Assembly: GCA_964385605.1 (NCBI GenBank)
Contig: CAYLPQ010000003.1
Location: forward strand, 8,203-72,202
Reading direction: 5' to 3'
Length of the DNA: 64,000 nucleotides
Source: an uncultured Oscillospiraceae bacterium
GTDB lineage: Bacteria; Bacillota; Clostridia; UMGS1883
Shown here: positions 7,343-64,000 of the stretch, one piece after another
Position numbering within the stretch: the first letter of the stretch is position 1
Layout: each line of letters begins with the position of its first letter
The notes under the pieces: generated by a model
The model's input: only the letters and a program-made list of their open reading frames with translations
Database searches by the model: none
What the model was told of the DNA's origin: nothing
Program-made: the position numbers and the translations under genes

Positions 7343-7510
7343 ACTAACACCTCGTTTTTTGATTTATACCTTGATTATAGTCTGTTTTTTCAGAAAAACA
7401 ATATCTTATACAGCACAAAATTTAACTAAAATGATATGATTGTCCGGCTATATTGACACAATTTTACTTTATATGTTATAATTAAAGAAAATTTTCACAG
7501 GAGGTTTTTT

Positions 7511-8980
7511 ATGAATACCAAAGCTAAAAAAATAGTGTGCATAATTCTGTTTTCCATTGTGCTTCAGATTATGTTAATCCCGTTTATTTATACATTTATT
7601 TTGAGTATGAAGGATTATAAACCCTTTGCGGGTTTGTTTGGCAGCGCCTTTGTGGGTATGAAAAACATCGCTACCGTATTAAGTTCGCCATATTTTTCAA
7701 GACTTTTAGGTAATACCTTCTCTATATCTGTTATTGGATTAATTGCAGGTGCCGTGTATGTCTTCCTTGCTTCTATGGCAATAGGCGGCATAGGTAACCG
7801 CTGGGTTAAATCACTGGTTGCAGTTTTCTTTGCAATCCCTGCACTTATTCCCGTAACCTTTGCGCGTTTCTTTTTCCCGACAGCAATGTTGACAGGTGAA
7901 ATCCCCGGCTATCAGCTGATAGCGGGAATTTTAGGCGGTTTAAGACTTGCAGGACTGGTATCCTTTGTTTCAATATTCACAAAGGATGATGTTCTGAAGC
8001 AGGGTCTTAAAACCACTCTTCTGTTTGTTGCTCTTAAGATGGTAACTTTCTTTTCTCCCGATGCTACCGTTAGCCTTGCTTCAATCAATCCGGCTATTTA
8101 CGAGGTTGCGGACACCCTTGCAACATATATGTACAGAGTAGGACTGATAGATACAAACTTTAGTTTTTCTGCCGCAGTTGGTATGATAAGAATGATTATG
8201 CAGCTCATTTTAGCTATTCCCATGATATTTGTTGTGAGATATATTATGCGTGAGGAAAAGGTTGTAAGACCACAGAATAAGCTGTTCAGCCTGTTCTCAA
8301 TTTCCGCAATTACACCACTTATTTTCCTTATACTGTCAATTGTTCTTTGCGGTTCGATTTTCTCCGTTTTTTCAGTTTCAGGTTATTTAGGAGATTTTGC
8401 CCCCTTTATGGCAAATGGATTTATAACATCTTTGTCCTCGGCTATACTAGTTGCGTTTATGGCTTATGCTGTAGCACTTTTGGGGCGCAACTCCGGAATG
8501 TTGGGAATTATCGGTATAACGTTGTTGTGCGCTATGACAGGCAACCTTATTTCCGAATATTTACTTATACGTCAGTTTGGTTTGCTTAACACATATCTGG
8601 CTGTAGCTGCAGGCAATCTTAAACTTGTTCCCATGATTTCACTTCTGTTCATGTTTGCCACAAAGAATAACCGCAGTGTGAAAAAGGATATGGCAGTAGT
8701 TATTGCAATGATACTTATGGTATTTGCATGGACCTGGGGTGACTTTTTCACTGACTCCATAGTCATCAGCGACCGTTCAAAACACACAGCTTCACTTCTT
8801 GCAAGACAAATCTGCACCCAAAATAATTCTGCTATGGTTACAGAAGGTACGGGCGCTGTTGGAGCCGTTCTTTCCAACGCAATTATGGCAATAACCAGAG
8901 TTATTCCGCTTACAATAGTGTTTGGCGGAAGTATATTGGTAGCACTGCTTAATAAAACAAATACACTTGAAATAAAGTAA
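7511..8980 (+). CDS. polytopic membrane protein: fused, truncated LplB-like plus LplC-like ABC permease halves
   Basis: The N-terminal half resembles MalF/LplB permeases (YKPFAGLFGSAFVGMKNI..., TYMYRVGLIDTNFSFSAAVGM). The C-terminal half resembles MalG/LplC (GNLISEYLLIRQFGLLNTYLAV..., WTWGDFFTDSIVISDRSKHTASLLARQI). I see no EAA-loop motif in either half. AGGAGG ribosome-binding site. Confidence 0.6.
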   Translation: MNTKAKKIVCIILFSIVLQIMLIPFIYTFILSMKDYKPFAGLFGSAFVGMKNIATVLSSPYFSRLLGNTFSISVIGLIAGAVYVFLASMAIGGIGNRWVKSLVAVFFAIPALIPVTFARFFFPTAMLTGEIPGYQLIAGILGGLRLAGLVSFVSIFTKDDVLKQGLKTTLLFVALKMVTFFSPDATVSLASINPAIYEVADTLATYMYRVGLIDTNFSFSAAVGMIRMIMQLILAIPMIFVVRYIMREEKVVRPQNKLFSLFSISAITPLIFLILSIVLCGSIFSVFSVSGYLGDFAPFMANGFITSLSSAILVAFMAYAVALLGRNSGMLGIIGITLLCAMTGNLISEYLLIRQFGLLNTYLAVAAGNLKLVPMISLLFMFATKNNRSVKKDMAVVIAMILMVFAWTWGDFFTDSIVISDRSKHTASLLARQICTQNNSAMVTEGTGAVGAVLSNAIMAITRVIPLTIVFGGSILVALLNKTNTLEIK

Positions 8981-8995
8981 ATATTATTAAACCCA

Positions 8996-9051
8996 AAAGA
9001 GGCTGTAGCAAAACGAATAAATATTTATTCGTTTTGCTACAGCCTCTTTTT
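8996..9051. terminator. perfect 56-nt palindrome / bidirectional terminator
   Basis: aaaagaggctgtagcaaaacgaataaat is followed by its exact reverse complement. Lies between convergent genes. Confidence 0.85.
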
Positions 9052-9054
9052 TGA

Positions 9055-11361
9055 TTATTCCAGTATTATTCCTTCATACGAAGTTCCGCCTGATGTCTGA
9101 TACATATTTTTAAAGCAGTATGTCACACCGCTTGATGTGATATTAAACGAAAGATACTGCATATTTTCGACTATACTTTTTACCGAGCCGCAATCCTTGG
9201 AATCGGCAACGGAAATATAACGGACTCCGTTTTTCAATTTCACGGCATTTTCATCACCGCAGTAAACTACAAATACATTTTTGTTCTTTGCGGCAGTTTG
9301 TATCATATTGTCAAAAGCGACACCGTCAATATATGCCTCAAATCCCGGCTCTGAATCAAAAAGCAAAATCAGATTCTTCTGTGCCGCGCCAGAGAGAACT
9401 GTATTAAGCTGTGACCACTGATTTCCGCGGCTGAATAAGCCTTTGTCAGACAAATCAACGGAAACAACCTTTGTATTCTCATAATTGTGCTCGCTCCAGG
9501 TTTGCGCCGTTATGGAAGAAATTCCGTCAGGGGTAAATTCGTTTATAAATTCACCGCCGACTATTGCCGAGGCACCGCCCTCGCGGAAAAGCTTCATTCC
9601 CTGTGCGTAAATAAGCCTATCAATAAGAGTTGTTGACGGGGTACTTGCGAGAACATTAAATGAAAATCCTCCGGACTCATTTTTGTACAATTCATCATTT
9701 GTCACTGCGTTAAGGATGGGGGCATCATACTCCCCGCAGGTGATTTTTATGCTGTTAAATGCGCTTCCGTAAGAAAAGGTGAGGTTTCCGCCGCCTTCAC
9801 GGAGAGCCTTTACACTATTTCCAGAAAGGGATATAAACGAGGAATCGTACACAGGATTAAGCAGTCCGAGGTTATTCACCGTTGCAGTATTTCCGTATTT
9901 ATCAAATACACAAACACCTTTTATCGTAGCACTTTCGCCTGTATTAAGAGTGAAAGCCGCAGGTGCTGTTATTCCGCACACATCGCTGATAACGGTAATC
10001 TCGCAGGAGTCGGTTACTTTTCCGTTATAGTAAAGCTCAAGCACTGTTTTTCCATCGCCCGACGCATAATAAATATCGTCCCTGACAGATCCGCTTCCCT
10101 CTGCCACTTTCCACTCATAAGGGTAAGGGGTTGAAACGGGTTTGTTGAAGTTCACATCGTAAGGGATAAGGTTAAGCTTCACACTGTCTCCGGAAAGAAC
10201 ATATTCACTTGCAGGACTTACATAAAATCCCACTGTCTCACCGCTTTGTGCTGTAGAAGTAACAGCAACTGCGTTTATTACCTTACGGTTTTCCGACGGG
10301 CTGTTAATATGGTGAAGCTCGCTGTTTGAAAGAGTTTTTGCAACCATCGCCGTAGAACCGCCGCCATCGAAATTCATGGCATTAACCATACCTGCTTCAA
10401 GGCATATGTCAGCAAGTGTTCCCAGAGTAACACCGCGGCTTATAGTCTGCCGTCCGTCAACAGTCAGAAGATATACAACTGTTCCGTCAGCATTTGTACC
10501 GATTGCCGTACGGGGGTTGTTGCCGGCAACATCGTGAGTTATTGTTGTTTTTACACCATCTTTAAGAAGAAGTGTACCTCCGCCAAAGGCGGTGTCAACA
10601 TCTTTTATAAGCTCTGCTTCACTCAAAGACACATTCACATTGTCACCTACATTGAAGTTATACTCCAGAAAAGGCGTCATATTATCATCAATTACAAGAA
10701 TATAGCCGTTTTCAGGAATCTGTATCGTTCCACCCTGACTTACACCCTTTGCCGTAACAATATCGTTTTCCACGGTAAGCGCCGTTATTCCCACAGGCAA
10801 AAACGGGGAAATGCCACCGTTAAATTCCGCAGTATACATAAGAACTGCACCGTAATAGTCTGTAGGCTTGTTAATATGCGCAAGGGCTGACGATGCACCA
10901 TTTGGCGCAGTTACGGTTCCTGTAAATTCAAGATAAGAAAACGCAAGGGAATTGTCACGGAAAAAGCCTGCCGCCATATCGGAATTAATATGGGACTGCA
11001 GAAGCTCCCCGTCCTTTACTTCAAGACCCAGGCTGAAGTTCTGATTGCCTTTATAAGCCGAAAAAAAGTCTGCATTTGTTGCCGCAACAACGTTTTGTCC
11101 GGCTTTTGCAAGGTTGATTACCGTATCAACCTTGTCACATCCTCCGGAATTTTTCAGAAGGTCCAGAGAAATATACTCGTTTTTTAAGTCAGCCGTAATA
11201 AGATTTATATTAAGGGAATAATCACCGTAAAATTTCTGTATGTTCGTACGGGTTACTCCGCCTGTTATAGTTTCTTGAGTAGTTTTTGTGTAAAGAGGCT
11301 GTGCAAATACACTTTGACAAAAAAGCATAAACACAGCAAAAAAAGAAATCAGCTTTTTCAC
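9055..11361 (-). CDS. secreted phosphodiester glycosidase (NAGPA/DUF2233) family protein with Ig-like repeats
   Basis: Signal peptide MKKLISFFAVFMLFCQSVFA and core motif AIGTNADGTVVYLLTVDGRQ...MNFDGGGSTAMV. GTG start 8 nt after AAGGAGG. Confidence 0.8.
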   Translation of the reverse strand: MKKLISFFAVFMLFCQSVFAQPLYTKTTQETITGGVTRTNIQKFYGDYSLNINLITADLKNEYISLDLLKNSGGCDKVDTVINLAKAGQNVVAATNADFFSAYKGNQNFSLGLEVKDGELLQSHINSDMAAGFFRDNSLAFSYLEFTGTVTAPNGASSALAHINKPTDYYGAVLMYTAEFNGGISPFLPVGITALTVENDIVTAKGVSQGGTIQIPENGYILVIDDNMTPFLEYNFNVGDNVNVSLSEAELIKDVDTAFGGGTLLLKDGVKTTITHDVAGNNPRTAIGTNADGTVVYLLTVDGRQTISRGVTLGTLADICLEAGMVNAMNFDGGGSTAMVAKTLSNSELHHINSPSENRKVINAVAVTSTAQSGETVGFYVSPASEYVLSGDSVKLNLIPYDVNFNKPVSTPYPYEWKVAEGSGSVRDDIYYASGDGKTVLELYYNGKVTDSCEITVISDVCGITAPAAFTLNTGESATIKGVCVFDKYGNTATVNNLGLLNPVYDSSFISLSGNSVKALREGGGNLTFSYGSAFNSIKITCGEYDAPILNAVTNDELYKNESGGFSFNVLASTPSTTLIDRLIYAQGMKLFREGGASAIVGGEFINEFTPDGISSITAQTWSEHNYENTKVVSVDLSDKGLFSRGNQWSQLNTVLSGAAQKNLILLFDSEPGFEAYIDGVAFDNMIQTAAKNKNVFVVYCGDENAVKLKNGVRYISVADSKDCGSVKSIVENMQYLSFNITSSGVTYCFKNMYQTSGGTSYEGIILE

Positions 11362-13989: not shown

Positions 13990-16068
13990 TTAATATAAAT
14001 TTGCAGTTAATTCTTTTTCTTTTTTCAATATTTTACCGTTTGTTACATTTATGAGCTCTTTTTCTGTGTGAAAATCTGCTCCCGAAAGCTTCAGATAGTC
14101 GCAATCTATAGGGAGAGGAGACTTTTTCAGCTCCTCAATACCGCTATAGCCTATTGCCTGCATAAAGACAAAGGTTTTTCCCATATATTCTATTTCCACT
14201 ACTGCGTTTTCATTCCCGACGTGATTAAGACTGTAAAGCTTTATATATGCATTTTTGCACCAAAAGACCTCATTTTCCTGAAGATATATTATCTGCACTC
14301 CCTGTTTTTTAAAAGATTCTATCTTTTGTCTTTCGCTGTCGGTATTGAAAGCAAATTCAGGCACAATTACAGTTCCTGCAAAGCCATTGTCTGCAAGCCT
14401 TTGCAGATTTCCGATATACGATGTAGTAAAAATAATATAGTCATATTGCGATTTCCCGTGATTTTCTGCCATGCTGATTGCTGTGGAGGATTGGTGACAA
14501 TCTATAAGAACCGACTCCCCGTCAGGAAAAAATGCCGCCGTCATTTCCCTTGAGCCGTAATTGACAAAATACATATTGATACGGTTTTTACTCTGCATTT
14601 CTGCACTCGTTACGACAAAAAATACTATCATAAATACCGCTGTTATCCTAAAAAGTATGTCTGTATTTATGTTTTTTGCAAAAATCATTATCATAATAAA
14701 CAGCCACGCAATGACAATGCTCCATTTCAGACTGAACGAAATTATTGCAAAAGGCAGCTTCCCTACAATGTTGCACACAGCCACAATACCCGTCAGGCAA
14801 CATTTTTCAGCAATTGCTGCCACCGTACCCAACAAAGGAATTTTATCCACGATAACCAACACCATCCCTGCAACAATTGACAGATTTGCAAAGGGTGTTA
14901 CCAGAAGATTGGAAAGAACGGAATAAGGGGTCAGTATGCCAAAGTAATACAGCACGGGAATTGTAACCGTCAGCTGTGCACTTACGGTTACAGCTATAAC
15001 CTCTGCCACGAAGCCCGGCAGATAGCGGGATATTACAGAGGATACCTTTTTATTAAAAAGAAATATTCCAATCACCGCAGCCACCGACAACACAAAGCCT
15101 GCGTTAAAAACTATGTAGGGATTAAATAATGTCATCAGAAGAACCGATACGGAAAGGGAGGTCAACGGGTCATTTTCCCGCCGTAAAATACGCGCCAGGG
15201 AGTACATTATACACATTATGCAGGCACGCACAACAGATGCACCTGCGCCCGTAAGAAGTGTTATTGCAATAATTACAGGAATTGAAAAGGCACTGCCCCG
15301 CCTGCGCCTGCCGAAAAGCCTTCCAAGAAATATCATCACTGCTTCAACAACCACCGAAAGATGCATTCCGGATACCGCGGCAATATGATTAAGTCCTGCT
15401 TTCTGCAATTTGTCGGTGAGATTATCGTCCATAAGATGCTTGTCTCCAAATACTATTGAATTAAAAAGCGCCCGTGCTTCACCTGCAAACCGGGCTTCAC
15501 CAACATTGTTCATATATCTGCGGACACTGTAAACAACGCCCTTTATTCCCGACCTTTCCTGTCCGCAAATCTGCACGTCATTAACGTCACCGTAAAGATA
15601 TATTCTGCGACTTAAAAGGTATTCCGAAAAGCCCGATGGACTTACTTTGTCAGAATACGGTTCACTGAAAGATATTCGCGTTTTTATAATATCGCCGGGC
15701 TTAAGCTCTGTCGGTTCTTCCATATAAAAATAGACCTTGTGGATTTTCCCCTGGGAATTAAATTCCGCAACTGCATTTGCTCTCTCCGAAAATTCTGTAA
15801 CTGTCATAGTCTGAATTTGGTTTTTGCCGTCAAATTCTCTTAAAACATCATCTTTAGTTCTTTGCGCCATAGTTGTACGCAGGCATCCTGCAAGAAGAAA
15901 AATAAGGCACAGGAAAATAAACGGCATTTTATCACTTTTATAAAGAAATACCGCCACGGAAAATATGAACCCTGCGCCGCAAATCAGCAATACATCTATA
16001 TTGAAAATTGTAAGTAAAACTCCCGCAACAAAAAAGCAGGTTGCCGCAAGCAAGGGACGTTTACTCAT
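13990..16068 (-). CDS. comEC: ComEC/Rec2-family DNA internalisation protein
   Basis: 692 aa. Polytopic competence domain (AGLNHIAAVSGMHLSVV). The C-terminal lactamase-like region has no HxHxDH string. Confidence 0.85.
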   Translation of the reverse strand: MSKRPLLAATCFFVAGVLLTIFNIDVLLICGAGFIFSVAVFLYKSDKMPFIFLCLIFLLAGCLRTTMAQRTKDDVLREFDGKNQIQTMTVTEFSERANAVAEFNSQGKIHKVYFYMEEPTELKPGDIIKTRISFSEPYSDKVSPSGFSEYLLSRRIYLYGDVNDVQICGQERSGIKGVVYSVRRYMNNVGEARFAGEARALFNSIVFGDKHLMDDNLTDKLQKAGLNHIAAVSGMHLSVVVEAVMIFLGRLFGRRRRGSAFSIPVIIAITLLTGAGASVVRACIMCIMYSLARILRRENDPLTSLSVSVLLMTLFNPYIVFNAGFVLSVAAVIGIFLFNKKVSSVISRYLPGFVAEVIAVTVSAQLTVTIPVLYYFGILTPYSVLSNLLVTPFANLSIVAGMVLVIVDKIPLLGTVAAIAEKCCLTGIVAVCNIVGKLPFAIISFSLKWSIVIAWLFIMIMIFAKNINTDILFRITAVFMIVFFVVTSAEMQSKNRINMYFVNYGSREMTAAFFPDGESVLIDCHQSSTAISMAENHGKSQYDYIIFTTSYIGNLQRLADNGFAGTVIVPEFAFNTDSERQKIESFKKQGVQIIYLQENEVFWCKNAYIKLYSLNHVGNENAVVEIEYMGKTFVFMQAIGYSGIEELKKSPLPIDCDYLKLSGADFHTEKELINVTNGKILKKEKELTANLY

Positions 16069-59982: not shown

Positions 59983-62244
59983 TTAATTGTTTTGGTTTGT
60001 AAGAGAAACCTTATATTCTTTTGGTGTCATACCCATATAAGCTTTAAACGCGCGTCTGAAAGAGACATCGCTGTTATAGCCTACCTGTTGTGAGATTTTT
60101 TCAATAGTTATATTTGAGCCGGACAAAAGATTGCAGGCAGCTTCCATACGTACTTTCGTAACATATTCGCTGAACTGATAACCCGTATATTCCTTAAAGA
60201 ATCGCGATGTGTATGCCTCGGAAATATGAAAATGACTTGAAAATGTCTGACGGGAAAGCAACGGGTCGCTGTAATGAGTATCAATATACTGCATCATGAT
60301 AACCGCCATATTTTCCGAAGAGCTGTCGTTTGAAAAGCTGTGTATTTTTGTCAATTGGGACTTTACAAGGTCAAAAAATCCCGGCAGTGTCAGGTCAAAG
60401 CCTTCTGAAAAAGCGGCTTCAGCCTCGGTAATAATTTCCGGGGGAAGATTTAAGTTGTACAGAATTTTAAATACCGTACATCTTATGTTGGAATAAAGGT
60501 GCTTGATTGCCTGTGCTGACAGAACCTTTTTTTCATGATTTTCCTTGAGGACAGTGTCCAGTGTCTCAAAAACTATATCTATGTTTTTGTGCTGGAAGGA
60601 GTAAATAATACGTTTTTCCACATCGGTAGGGTAAAAGTAACCCGTATTTCCCGAAAGTCCCTTCGTGCACCAGACAGCATTGTTATACGTGGTCTGAATA
60701 CCGTATTCCATAATGTTTTTTACATCGCAGTATTTATAGAATGTGTCAAAAAACGAAGTGAAAGGCTCACTGATAGCAAATTTGAGCTTAATGTCAAATT
60801 CTTTGTTGGATTCTTCTGCCAGCTTATTAAGGGTATCCTCGAGAATAAGCACCGTGTCATCTTTATCGTCAACACCTAAAAGAAAAACTGTTTGCTCGTC
60901 ATTAATATAGGTATGGATACACGAATACTGTGACGATAGCTTTTCAGAAAGTGTTGCTTTCAATGAAGTTACTTTTGTCGGAGAGTTACCTCTGCCGGGA
61001 GAAGACATCAGAATGGAAATAATACATATAATGTAATGGCTGGAATCAAGTGAAAGATTAAATTGATTCATGTTCTGCATTATTTCGTCCCTGTCCAAGA
61101 GGTCGCCCGAAAGAATCGAATGCAGGAAGTTAGAACGTAGTATAGGCATACTTTCTTCCAGGATTTTTGTTGAATGCTGGCTTGTGCTTATAAGATTATC
61201 AACCGATTCAGAAATAATGTTCAGTTCGTTGTTTTTGTCGTTTGAAGCCTCCGAATAGGGGCGAAGTGTATTTAATATCCGCTCTATGGGGCGTGTATTG
61301 CGCTTGGTAAAGTAAAGCGCGAGAAATCCGCACACTATAAAGCTGATGAAGAGAGCAAATATTATAATGAAGCGCACCATATTTATGTCGGAAGAAACTA
61401 TACTTGACGGAATTGCCAGAGCATAGTTGTAGGAGTTTGATTCTGTTGTCTGATAGACCGTGTATTCTATCCCATCAATAACTTCGGTGGTTCTTTTCTC
61501 GCTACCGAGGCTTATGTTAGGGGAATTATAGCTCTGTGCAATCGGATTTTTAGAATTATCAAAGAAATAGAAACAACTGTTGGCAGGGAGGTCGTTTTCA
61601 ATTGCTTTAAACAGCTTTTCAGAATCAACACTTATAAGAATCGTTCCTGTAATGTTTTCGGCTTCCTGCACAGGAACGGTTGTAATGAAGTAAAAGCAGT
61701 TTTTATGCGTGCCCTTGGAAATAAAGTCCGTCTGATAGTATAGTCTGTTGTATCCATAGTAAGAAAGAACAGTTGCTTTCAGGGTGTGATAATCCATATC
61801 GCCGATTTTCAGGAAATCGCCGTAACTTGAAGAGGGAATAGCTGTTGTAGTCGAAAGAAAATAATCTCCCGGGTGGGAGTATAGGTAAATATCATCAATA
61901 AGTGGGTTTGAGGATGTGTATGAATTCAGATGTGAAATTATATTGAGCTGTATTGATGGTTGATATGTACTGCTTCCTTTATTAAGTACGTTTGTTGTTA
62001 AAAACGAAGCTGATTCTCTGTTTGACAGAATCTGTGCAGGGATATTGCTGATTCCTTCAAGGTATTGGTTAACAATTTGCTGGGATTGGGAGAGTGCGCT
62101 GTAATACTTCTCCTCGTTGTTGCGGTTAAGGGTCTGAAGCAGATTTGCGTAAAGTATTCCACAGGTAATAATAGGAATAAGCATAATCACCAGATATGTT
62201 AAAATAAAGAATTTAAAAGTAGATAGTTTTACATTTGTTTTCAA
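59983..62244 (-). CDS. membrane-anchored sensor/AraC-family transcriptional regulator
   Basis: 753 aa. Two TM segments flank an extracytoplasmic (Cache-like) domain. C-terminal AraC HTH (ITIEKISQQVGYNSDVSFRRAFKAYMGMTPKEY). Confidence 0.8.
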   Translation of the reverse strand: MKTNVKLSTFKFFILTYLVIMLIPIITCGILYANLLQTLNRNNEEKYYSALSQSQQIVNQYLEGISNIPAQILSNRESASFLTTNVLNKGSSTYQPSIQLNIISHLNSYTSSNPLIDDIYLYSHPGDYFLSTTTAIPSSSYGDFLKIGDMDYHTLKATVLSYYGYNRLYYQTDFISKGTHKNCFYFITTVPVQEAENITGTILISVDSEKLFKAIENDLPANSCFYFFDNSKNPIAQSYNSPNISLGSEKRTTEVIDGIEYTVYQTTESNSYNYALAIPSSIVSSDINMVRFIIIFALFISFIVCGFLALYFTKRNTRPIERILNTLRPYSEASNDKNNELNIISESVDNLISTSQHSTKILEESMPILRSNFLHSILSGDLLDRDEIMQNMNQFNLSLDSSHYIICIISILMSSPGRGNSPTKVTSLKATLSEKLSSQYSCIHTYINDEQTVFLLGVDDKDDTVLILEDTLNKLAEESNKEFDIKLKFAISEPFTSFFDTFYKYCDVKNIMEYGIQTTYNNAVWCTKGLSGNTGYFYPTDVEKRIIYSFQHKNIDIVFETLDTVLKENHEKKVLSAQAIKHLYSNIRCTVFKILYNLNLPPEIITEAEAAFSEGFDLTLPGFFDLVKSQLTKIHSFSNDSSSENMAVIMMQYIDTHYSDPLLSRQTFSSHFHISEAYTSRFFKEYTGYQFSEYVTKVRMEAACNLLSGSNITIEKISQQVGYNSDVSFRRAFKAYMGMTPKEYKVSLTNQNN

Positions 62245-62556: not shown

Positions 62557-64000
62557 GTGAAAAAAGTGTGTGCAATACTGTGTATCGTGACAATTCTATT
62601 TACAGCAGTAGGCTGCGAAGAAAAAACTGAAAAAAGAGATGTTGTGACTTTGTCATGGTGGGTTCCGATGCTTCAGCATGTTGGGAAAACCAGCTCGAAT
62701 TTTGCTGAAAATGAAATGTATAAGGAACTTATGAAACGAACAGGAACCAACATTGAGTTTATACATCCCAAAGGAGGAGAAACCTTTGATGTGCTTTTGA
62801 TGTCAAATGATTTGCCTGACATAATAGAGCATAGCTTTTTCAGCTTCAAGGGAGGTCCCCAGGCAGCCCTTGATGAAAATTTCATTATCAGTCTTGATTC
62901 TTTTCTTGAAAAATACTCGCCCAATTATGCGCGGGTTCTCAAAGAAAACCCGTCATGGGACAGTGAGGTAACCACGGAAAACGGTTCTCATTACACCTAT
63001 GCGTGGTTAAGAGGCGACGAAAGTCTTCTGTACTGGAAAGGCTTGCAGGTAAGAACTGATTTATTGAAGCAGGCAGAACTTCCCGTTCCGGAAACTGTAG
63101 CAGAATGGGATACTGCACTGCGAAAATTTAAGGAGATGGGTATAAAGTACCCCCTTACATACAGATGGTCTTTTGGTACCTCCGACCCGTTTGTCAGCGC
63201 TTATAACTCTTTAAGCGGATATTATGAAGTTGACGGTGTTGTTAAATTTTCTCCCTTTGATGAGGGGTACAGAAAATACATTGAGCTGATGCATACCTGG
63301 TACAGAGACGGAATCCTTGACCCTGATGTTTTTACCCAGAGCGATGAGCTTTTTGAAAGCAAGCTGATGAGCGGACAGGTAGGAGCATATATGGGAACAC
63401 TTGGAGGAAATATGGGAAACTGTCTGCCTGAATTGCAGAAAAAAGGTGCCGGAATCGTAGCCGCGCCAACTCCTGTGATGAACCGCGGAGATGAAGTTTT
63501 TCAAAGCCAGCGGGACAGTTTTTATCAGCCCAGTACAAGTGTTTCAATAAGTCGTGACTGTGAAAATATAGAAGCTGCGGCAAGATTACTTGATTACGGG
63601 TACAGCGAAGAGGGACATCTTTTATACAATTTCGGAATAGAGGGTGTTTCGTATAAAATGGTGGACGGCTATCCAAAATATCTTCCCGAAATAACAAACA
63701 ATCCCGACGGACTTTCCATGCAGCACGCAATGAGTAAGTATATGGCATCGGCTTACGGCGGACCGTTTATTCAGGATAAAAGAGAATATGAGCAGTATCT
63801 CAGGTATCCCGAACAGAAGTATGCTGTCGAGCTGTGGAGTAAAGAAACCCAGGATCACAGATTGCCTCAACATATAATGCTTCCGGCAGAGCTTGAAAGT
63901 AAGGACAGTCAGATAAGAGCTTATTGCAGCAATATGCTCGTTAAATTTATAACCGGCGAGGTTCCGTTAACTGAATACGACAGATTTACGAATGATTTAA
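62557..64000 (+). CDS. extracellular solute-binding lipoprotein (LplA-type sugar ABC SBP), 3' end beyond the window
   Basis: Not in the ORF track (GTG start, no stop within the window). AAAGGA lies 9 nt upstream. Lipobox LFTAVGC. 481 open codons (..TLSWWVPMLQHVGKTSSNFAENEMYKELMKRTGTNIEFIHP..), typical of a family 1 SBP. Confidence 0.8.
   Translation, partial: MKKVCAILCIVTILFTAVGCEEKTEKRDVVTLSWWVPMLQHVGKTSSNFAENEMYKELMKRTGTNIEFIHPKGGETFDVLLMSNDLPDIIEHSFFSFKGGPQAALDENFIISLDSFLEKYSPNYARVLKENPSWDSEVTTENGSHYTYAWLRGDESLLYWKGLQVRTDLLKQAELPVPETVAEWDTALRKFKEMGIKYPLTYRWSFGTSDPFVSAYNSLSGYYEVDGVVKFSPFDEGYRKYIELMHTWYRDGILDPDVFTQSDELFESKLMSGQVGAYMGTLGGNMGNCLPELQKKGAGIVAAPTPVMNRGDEVFQSQRDSFYQPSTSVSISRDCENIEAAARLLDYGYSEEGHLLYNFGIEGVSYKMVDGYPKYLPEITNNPDGLSMQHAMSKYMASAYGGPFIQDKREYEQYLRYPEQKYAVELWSKETQDHRLPQHIMLPAELESKDSQIRAYCSNMLVKFITGEVPLTEYDRFTNDL

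Follow-up and report, generated by a model that had tools for sequence, protein, structure and literature searches.

A predicted single-chain LplB–LplC-type permease family of Clostridia without EAA coupling loops

The window analysed here is a stretch of 64,000 nucleotides from an uncultured Oscillospiraceae bacterium (assembly GCA_964385605.1, contig CAYLPQ010000003.1, positions 8,203 to 72,202). The source genome is a metagenome-assembled genome (MAG) of 2.5 Mb and 84% completeness. At 7511-8980 the window carries a gene whose 489-residue product appears to join the LplB-type and LplC-type membrane subunits of an ATP-binding cassette (ABC) importer in one chain, from which both EAA coupling loops have gone. 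Membership of a conserved family in gut Clostridia marks it as a working protein and not a dead gene, with a role that is probably new and motor-free. An earlier sequence-only reading had described the fusion and the missing loops, and had offered either a repurposed scaffold or a very recent pseudogene as the explanation. The features of the gene, in window coordinates, are as follows.

7453..7482, + strand: sigma-70 promoter, TTGACA, 18-nt spacer and TG-n-TATAAT (12/12 consensus matches, extended -10)
7499..7504, + strand: ribosome-binding site AGGAGG, with the ATG 6 nt downstream
7511..8980, + strand: fused permease-like coding sequence, an intact open reading frame (ORF) of 489 codons
7511..8257, + strand: N-half, aa 1-249, LplB/AlgM1/MalF-type permease domain with predicted transmembrane helices (TM) TM1-TM6 (hhalign, AlgM1 match)
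7979..8008, + strand: short TM4-TM5 loop, predicted cytoplasmic, aa 157-166, TKDDVLKQGL, at the site of the LplB EAA loop; ~20 residues deleted
8258..8977, + strand: C-half, aa 250-489, LplC/AlgM2/MalG-type domain with predicted TM7-TM12, after a ~20-aa basic cytoplasmic linker (hhalign, AlgM2 match)
8660..8689, + strand: short TM10-TM11 loop, predicted cytoplasmic, aa 384-393, TKNNRSVKKD, at the site of the LplC EAA loop; ~20 residues deleted
8999..9046, no strand assigned: bidirectional intrinsic terminator with a 20-bp stem, common to the fused gene and the convergent NAGPA gene

The fused gene is a complete monocistronic unit, with a promoter, ribosome-binding site and terminator of its own. 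The intact 489-codon frame and the strong AGGAGG described earlier were both confirmed, the latter at 7499-7504, 6 nt before the ATG. A perfect palindrome at 8996-9051 scores as the 20-bp-stem bidirectional terminator between the fused and NAGPA genes. To the left lie, in order, ctsR-mcsA-mcsB-clpC (-), an AraC regulator (+) and a divergent Gfo/Idh/MocA oxidoreductase (gfo, -). To the right follow a convergent 768-aa NAGPA-domain protein (-), a short-chain dehydrogenase/reductase (SDR), a LUD-domain protein, an ACT protein, SpoU, ComEC, aspartokinase and homoserine dehydrogenase.

Profile comparisons indicate that both halves are homologues of bona fide type I ABC importer permeases. An alignment of 60 family members was compared by hhalign with the eight canonical lplB/lplC pairs of the source genome itself. 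The N-half matched the LplB paralogues (99.9%, E 3.5e-35) and the C-half the LplC paralogues (98.6%, E 7e-16), the C-half reaching only E 0.08 against LplB. In the PDB, the 60-member family profile matched AlgM1 (4tqu_M, E 1.9e-37, query 6-247) and AlgM2 (4tqu_N, E 1.6e-8, query 283-467), with SugA and SugB as further matches. The EAA segments of the AlgM1 and AlgM2 chains fell as inserts relative to the profile. A smaller profile, built from the protein plus three close homologues, had already matched AlgM1. The hhalign and AlgM1/AlgM2 matches thus bear out the LplB-like and LplC-like halves first recognized by eye. A mixed MAFFT alignment, which misplaced LplC paralogues onto the N-half, was left out of use.

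Pfam and NCBIfam scans of the 489-aa protein returned no match. BPD_transp_1 (PF00528), which had been suggested as a check for two partial domains, matched neither the whole protein, nor either half, nor any of the 60 family members at E<=10. Canonical LplB and LplC controls scored 58.4 and 39.7 bits, respectively, against a cut-off of 26.4. The silence of Pfam and NCBIfam on the fused protein is a problem of sensitivity, because family profiles and hhalign do detect the permease homology. A colicin pore-domain match below the cut-off (18-20 bits), present in only 1 of the 60 members, was put down to chance similarity of a hydrophobic hairpin.

Hydropathy analysis gave 12 hydrophobic segments, arranged 6+6. 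Lysine plus arginine density was 0.21 in the proposed inner loops versus 0.05 in the outer loops, and the predicted topology comprises 12 TM, six helices per domain, with both termini cytoplasmic. Residues facing the cytoplasm number ~91 in all. The 20-residue basic linker that joins the halves is the longest of these stretches, and the other inner loops are 8-14 residues long. An AlphaFold2 (AF2) model was built from 13 rows (orthologues, one metagenome relative and the LplB paralogues of the source genome aligned on the N-half). It reached a predicted template modelling score (pTM) of 0.76 and a mean predicted local distance difference test score (pLDDT) of 68, with TM cores at 70-90. The best full-length Foldseek match of the model was the single-chain permease FbpB (9j4r_A, TM-score 0.51, probability 1.00), at 13% sequence identity over the fold alignment. 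AlgM1 and SugA came next, both matching over the N-half (target TM-scores 0.47-0.57). The structure and topology check proposed in the sequence-only reading thus points to a 6+6 protein that would resemble a known single-chain permease.

The EAA coupling loop is a defining and supposedly indispensable feature of binding-protein-dependent ABC permeases. The strict pattern (EAA-x3-G-x9-I-x-LP, between TM4 and TM5 of each permease domain) was present in 15 of the 16 canonical paralogues of the source genome versus none of the 60 family members. Canonical EAA columns were 83-100% gap in the family, except for a Gly-Ala pair at ~62%, and the N-half columns I-D-x-x-L-Y-E-A-A-x-I-D-G-A were 100% gap. 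The absence of both loops claimed earlier was therefore upheld. At the C-half EAA site the fused protein has 21 residues, versus 41 in a loop-retaining subgroup described below. Further losses are TLPxIxPT, the LNE and QT motifs that canonical proteins carry in the inner loop joining TM2 and TM3, and YPFxQKxFxxGxxxGxxK, the C-terminal tail of LplC. The tail columns F, Q, K and F are 98-100% gap, and the flanking Y, P and final K are substituted in the family (0-5% retention). The N-half outer loop between TM3 and TM4 is ~20-25 aa shorter than in canonical proteins, and the first outer loop of the C-half ~18 aa shorter. The halves are indeed shortened, as had been noted, and beyond the EAA loops the shortening comes from the outer loops and the LplC tail.

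Retention in the fused family was scored at those positions that at least 80% of 29-30 canonical LplB or LplC sequences share. G41, S45, G49, N68, P110, Y197, D201, Y208, R209, G211, A222 and P466 were retained in 77-98% of members, with P466 at 98%. These signature residues sit in outer loops or at outer helix ends. By this alignment-based survey, the outer-loop signature of the LplB/LplC subfamily is present in the fused family.

An exhaustive HMMER search over 1.84 billion representatives gave 475 matches at E<=1e-3 and 132 at E<=1e-10. The survey of fused EAA-less homologues that had been called for thus revealed a broad, conserved family. Most of the proteins examined (130/153) were at least 430 aa long, and fused cluster representatives number at least 110. 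Further genome and metagenome locus scans for members added one sequence. Among 399 sampled Clostridia genomes, a single-ORF member was present in no fewer than 14, spread over at least 11 families; only three candidates were scored per genome, so that the count is a floor. Ten representatives were looked up and none had a name. Across the family members scanned, the sole significant Pfam match was a C-terminal SHOCT domain in one protein, and no description of such a fused loop-less permease family was found in the literature searched. The comparisons point to an unnamed, profile-invisible family derived from CUT1 permeases.

Many members bear cytoplasmic tails that are variable and disordered, or else a zinc ribbon or SHOCT domain. 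These additions in the longer members fit a topology with both termini inside and indicate no function. One 623-aa member (L058:430-2298, metagenome contig Ga0265299_10041844) has an N-terminal cytoplasmic extension of tandem NNQGANMQTSTFE-like repeats, and low-complexity Q/P/A-rich tails related to these repeats occur in many members. A defence or phage origin was considered and rejected: there were no PADLOC matches, and PHROG matches were only to the SHOCT tail of one member.

Trees of the separate halves placed the fused family in one clan apart from canonical LplB (SH-aLRT 82) and LplC (94). A full-length tree that included concatenated canonical pairs set all fused proteins against the split pairs with a support of 100. 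In the same tree a loop-retaining group formed one clan (support 100) and a loop-deleted group another (support 82). The loop-retaining subgroup, termed group II, accounts for 13 of 130 proteins, with lengths of 553-598 aa, against roughly 115 loop-deleted representatives.

Group II proteins: P0092, P0099, P0101, P0102, P0104, P0106, P0117, P0122, P0125, P0126, P0138, P0145, P0149
Group II loci: L050, L051, L055, L056

Loop lengths in group II are near canonical. The C-half has a strongly conserved EAA-like skeleton, xxAxxxGRGExxxFFTLFIPK (GRGExxxFFTLFIPKVWKPLLAL), with A, G and I-P residues spaced as in canonical LplC (A-x3-G-x12-P), and the C-terminal tail RKWxTSEVLxSQxRK is LplC-like. To judge from these motifs, group II may still bind an ATPase, and it looks like an evolutionary intermediate. 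Across the family, loop lengths form a series of 41, 35, 23-34 and 21 residues, with the fused protein and its orthologues at the minimum. Among 17 loci compared for gene context, the strict EAA pattern was absent in all; the four group II loci keep 41-residue EAA-like loops, L052 has a loop of 35 residues and the remainder are intermediate. Shrinkage of the loops was probably stepwise, because this sister subgroup retains near-full-length loops with an EAA-like skeleton. With rooting on the canonical pairs assumed, the tree would fit a single fusion, after which the coupling loops were lost by degrees. Apparent 615-655-aa fused permeases in relatives were rejected as full-length fused ancestors; they are adjacent lplB and lplC genes read through the stop codon.

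Intact fused orthologues were present in three other species of the genus, at ~55% identity in G031 and G014 (53-55%) and 39% in G009. The sequence-only reading had named split, full-length lplB and lplC genes in relatives as the mark of simple decay; the locus of the relatives carries fused, loop-less orthologues instead. Comparison with G014 and G031 gave a nonsynonymous divergence (dN) of 0.34-0.37, a synonymous divergence (dS) of ~1.6-1.75, which is saturated, and a pN/pS of 0.40-0.44. The fused gene is under purifying selection. Its C-half diverges faster than its N-half. The promoter is kept in the orthologous loci of G014 and G031, and GGAGG is kept in both.

The gene evolves 4-5x faster than gfo, lud and spoU (dN 0.06-0.08), at a rate similar to those of the secreted NAGPA protein and ComEC. 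No full-length copy was found in G035, a genome of 96% completeness, and the fused gene is not adjacent to gfo in G034 or G035. At the G035 locus, similarity ends just before the -35 box. The fused gene is thus an accessory, fast-evolving, cassette-like unit. Accessory status and a rate well above that of the housekeeping neighbours are what a decaying, non-functional relic, a pseudogene in progress, might display. We give this explanation almost no credence, however, since frames are intact across orthologues at this depth of divergence (dS ~1.6-1.75) with pN/pS below 0.45, the promoter and ribosome-binding site are conserved, and more than 100 diverged full-length family representatives keep conserved motifs. 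The suggestion of a very recent pseudogene is accordingly set aside, the orthologues at 53-55% identity being intact, fused and loop-less.

Two other proteins of the locus also diverge quickly. The NAGPA-domain protein (9055-11361, -) shows 59% identity and a dN of 0.33, and ComEC (13990-16068, -) shows 45% identity and a dN of 0.50. Housekeeping flanks are 85-97% identical between the same two species, with the NAGPA protein and ComEC evolving as fast as the fused gene or faster.

None of the 17 context loci, which represent both subgroups, had an adjacent binding-protein gene or an adjacent transporter ATPase gene. Outside the three closest species no neighbour cluster recurred, and within these species the divergent Gfo oxidoreductase was the single neighbour in common. 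The fourteen more distant loci had unrelated housekeeping neighbours. Products of the directly adjacent genes include SpoIVA, phosphoglucomutase, an SLH-M13 peptidase, GH43, PfkB, an SNF symporter, FloA, a class A penicillin-binding protein (PBP) and SipL, as well as MnmA, an ABC-F protein, YbaK, an epimerase, a TPR protein, an OmpR-type regulator, a HAD hydrolase, LeuA and ThyA. A functional link to the phosphodiester glycosidase, oxidoreductase and AraC neighbours is therefore not supported; the Gfo pairing alone recurs, and in the three closest species alone.

In the source genome, all eight canonical lplBC pairs have an adjacent lipoprotein binding protein, and none of the eight has an ATPase within 6 kb. 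The sole MalK/MsmX-type ATPase is unlinked, on contig C35. The missing neighbour ATPase gene is uninformative because the canonical pairs also lack one nearby. Of the earlier remark that neither an ATPase nor a binding-protein gene is adjacent, only the binding-protein part is informative (8/8 canonical pairs have one). The real differences from canonical systems are the missing binding protein and the missing loops.

This layout bears on whether the protein is still an ATP-driven importer, touching a shared, unlinked MsmX/MalK-type ATPase through a non-canonical interface. Canonical lplBC systems here are also without a linked ATPase, one unlinked MalK-type ATPase exists, and the sister subgroup, with its EAA-like skeleton (A-x3-G-x12-P) and C-terminal tail, may still bind an ATPase. 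Yet all three known contact elements are deleted in the fused protein, which leaves inner loops of 8-14 residues plus the 20-residue linker, and no binding protein is adjacent. We regard residual coupling of this kind as very improbable.

Two of the distant loci place the gene beside spore-coat genes: L015:8328-9803 (G009) lies beside spoIVA and L052:5624-7219 (G382) beside sipL, whose products are spore-coat morphogenesis partners. An envelope- or sporulation-associated membrane protein, in which the 12-TM scaffold is reused in spore-coat or cell-wall assembly in a role unrelated to sugars, would account for these two adjacencies, for the class A PBP and FloA at other loci, and for the presence of SpoIVA in all 14 fused-member genomes of the class sample. 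However, SpoIVA occurs in 301 of the 399 sampled genomes (75%) anyway, so that 14/14 is weak (~0.02, genomes not independent). The promoter is a perfect vegetative sigma-70 type and not a sporulation-sigma type, and most neighbourhoods consist of unrelated housekeeping genes. An envelope role is therefore improbable, if less so than residual ATPase coupling.

A stronger competitor is a non-transporting receptor or scaffold, comparable to the transporter-derived sensors UhpC and Snf3/Rgt2. Binding proteins of the LplA type, or glycans of the cell surface, would dock on its outer face, and it would signal to or position another membrane protein. Conservation is concentrated in the outer loops, with cytoplasmic and several intramembrane signature residues lost; many members have disordered tails, a zinc ribbon or a SHOCT domain on the cytoplasmic side; and evolution is fast, as in surface-exposed proteins. 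Against this, the 17 loci have no conserved regulator, kinase or binding-protein neighbour, and this protein has almost no cytoplasmic surface for signalling. One orphan binding protein examined fails to co-occur across the genus. That candidate partner, an LplA-type protein (G000 C2:40672-42228), was rejected, having orthologues in G014 and in G035, which is without the fused gene, and not in G031, which has it. We consider a receptor unlikely on balance, although it stands ahead of the other alternatives.

Among characterized systems, the closest parallels in half order, homology and 6+6 core are AlgM1-AlgM2, the alginate importer of Sphingomonas sp. A1 (PDB 4TQU/4XIG), and LplB/LplC of the Bacillus subtilis type. 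The outer-loop motifs SxKDYxPxxGxxGSxxVG and NPxxYExxDxxxTYxYRxGL are shared with LplB-type permeases. Unlike AlgM1-AlgM2 and LplB-LplC, the fused protein is one chain and not two, with the EAA loops, LNE/QT, TLPxIxPT and the LplC tail deleted. It also has shortened outer loops, no adjacent binding protein and no BPD_transp_1 match. FbpB (PDB 9J4R), from the ferric-ion importer FbpBC of Thermus thermophilus, likewise carries two type I permease domains per chain, as do other single-chain double permeases. FbpB has kept its coupling helices, and its partners are the FbpC ATPase and a binding protein. Group II proteins (e.g. P0104, P0125, P0149) share the LplB-LplC fusion, the clan and the stand-alone setting with no adjacent binding protein or ATPase, and differ in their C-half region (41 versus 21 residues), EAA-like skeleton and LplC-like tail. 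UhpC and Snf3/Rgt2 are transporter-derived sensors, and CFTR is also a transporter fold diverted from ancestral energised transport. Their likeness to the fused protein is one of function only, as they belong to unrelated families or a different ABC type.

The sequence evidence shows a single-chain, stand-alone pseudo-heterodimer that descends from the LplB-type and LplC-type membrane subunits, in this order, of a CUT1 oligosaccharide importer. Within the fused Clostridia family the cytoplasmic ATPase-contact elements were progressively shortened, with this protein at the fully reduced end. Both EAA loops, the other conserved cytoplasmic motifs and the LplC tail have been shed, while the 6+6 TM core and the outer-face motifs have stayed. 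A protein of this kind would not be driven canonically by a MalK/MsmX-type ATPase. Its outer face and membrane core would therefore most likely serve as an ATP-independent carbohydrate conduit, passive or gated by a binding protein. The repurposed, ATPase-independent scaffold suggested by the sequence-only reading is the best-supported reading of the sequence evidence, from which the actual activity is inferred.

Several observations weigh against a conduit. Equivalents of the TM4-TM6 residues W144, G148, Y154, G178 and N239 are missing too, which may mean that the translocation path has not survived. The outer-loop motifs could be retained for folding and not for binding a ligand or partner. 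The AF2 model is of medium confidence, and its N-half profited from the LplB paralogues among the aligned rows. The gene neighbourhoods hold no conserved gene that would point to a substrate. Transport without the ATPase is not known for any type I importer membrane domain, and a literature search gave no precedent. Taken overall, we hold an ATPase-independent conduit derived from a fused permease to be the best explanation, with slightly better than even confidence. Behind it come, in descending order, the receptor or scaffold that does not transport, the role in the envelope or in sporulation, residual coupling to an ATPase by a non-canonical route and, last, decay.

A bolder interpretation is possible, which we put forward tentatively and at less than even confidence. 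Among type I ABC-importer membrane domains, the family may be the first lineage to have become free of any ATPase, acting as an oligosaccharide channel (passive or binding-protein-gated) or as a surface receptor, and preserving the path from split subunits through fused proteins with degenerate loops to proteins with the loops excised. The type I permease scaffold would then be reusable without its motor, in a conserved, selected family, widespread among gut Clostridia, that fused the subunits and removed every ATPase contact but kept the membrane core and outer face. Such a family would offer a natural series of intermediates for studying the loss of coupling, and a tractable way to ask whether the membrane domain of a type I importer is able, by itself, to conduct solutes or to sense them. 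Its more than 100 diverged clusters are entirely missed by current profile libraries and are hence annotated as hypothetical.

Elsewhere in the source genome there are two LplA-type lipoprotein binding proteins without adjacent permease genes, one in the window (59983-62244, -, and 62557-64000, +, running off the window) and one at G000 C2:38094-42228. Both form a divergent pair with a membrane protein of 750-800 aa, and large secreted proteins come after. These pairs may be binding-protein-dependent sensor modules of glycan-utilisation loci. In the gfo-proximal part of the intergenic region (7385-7435), a ~45-nt stretch, AACAATATCTTATACnGCnnAAAATTTAACTnAAATGATATG, is kept upstream of gfo in G000, G014 and G031, and is also present in G035, the genome without the fused gene. 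The stretch is a candidate regulatory site of the oxidoreductase gene, either an operator or a promoter element, on which the AraC regulator encoded nearby might act.

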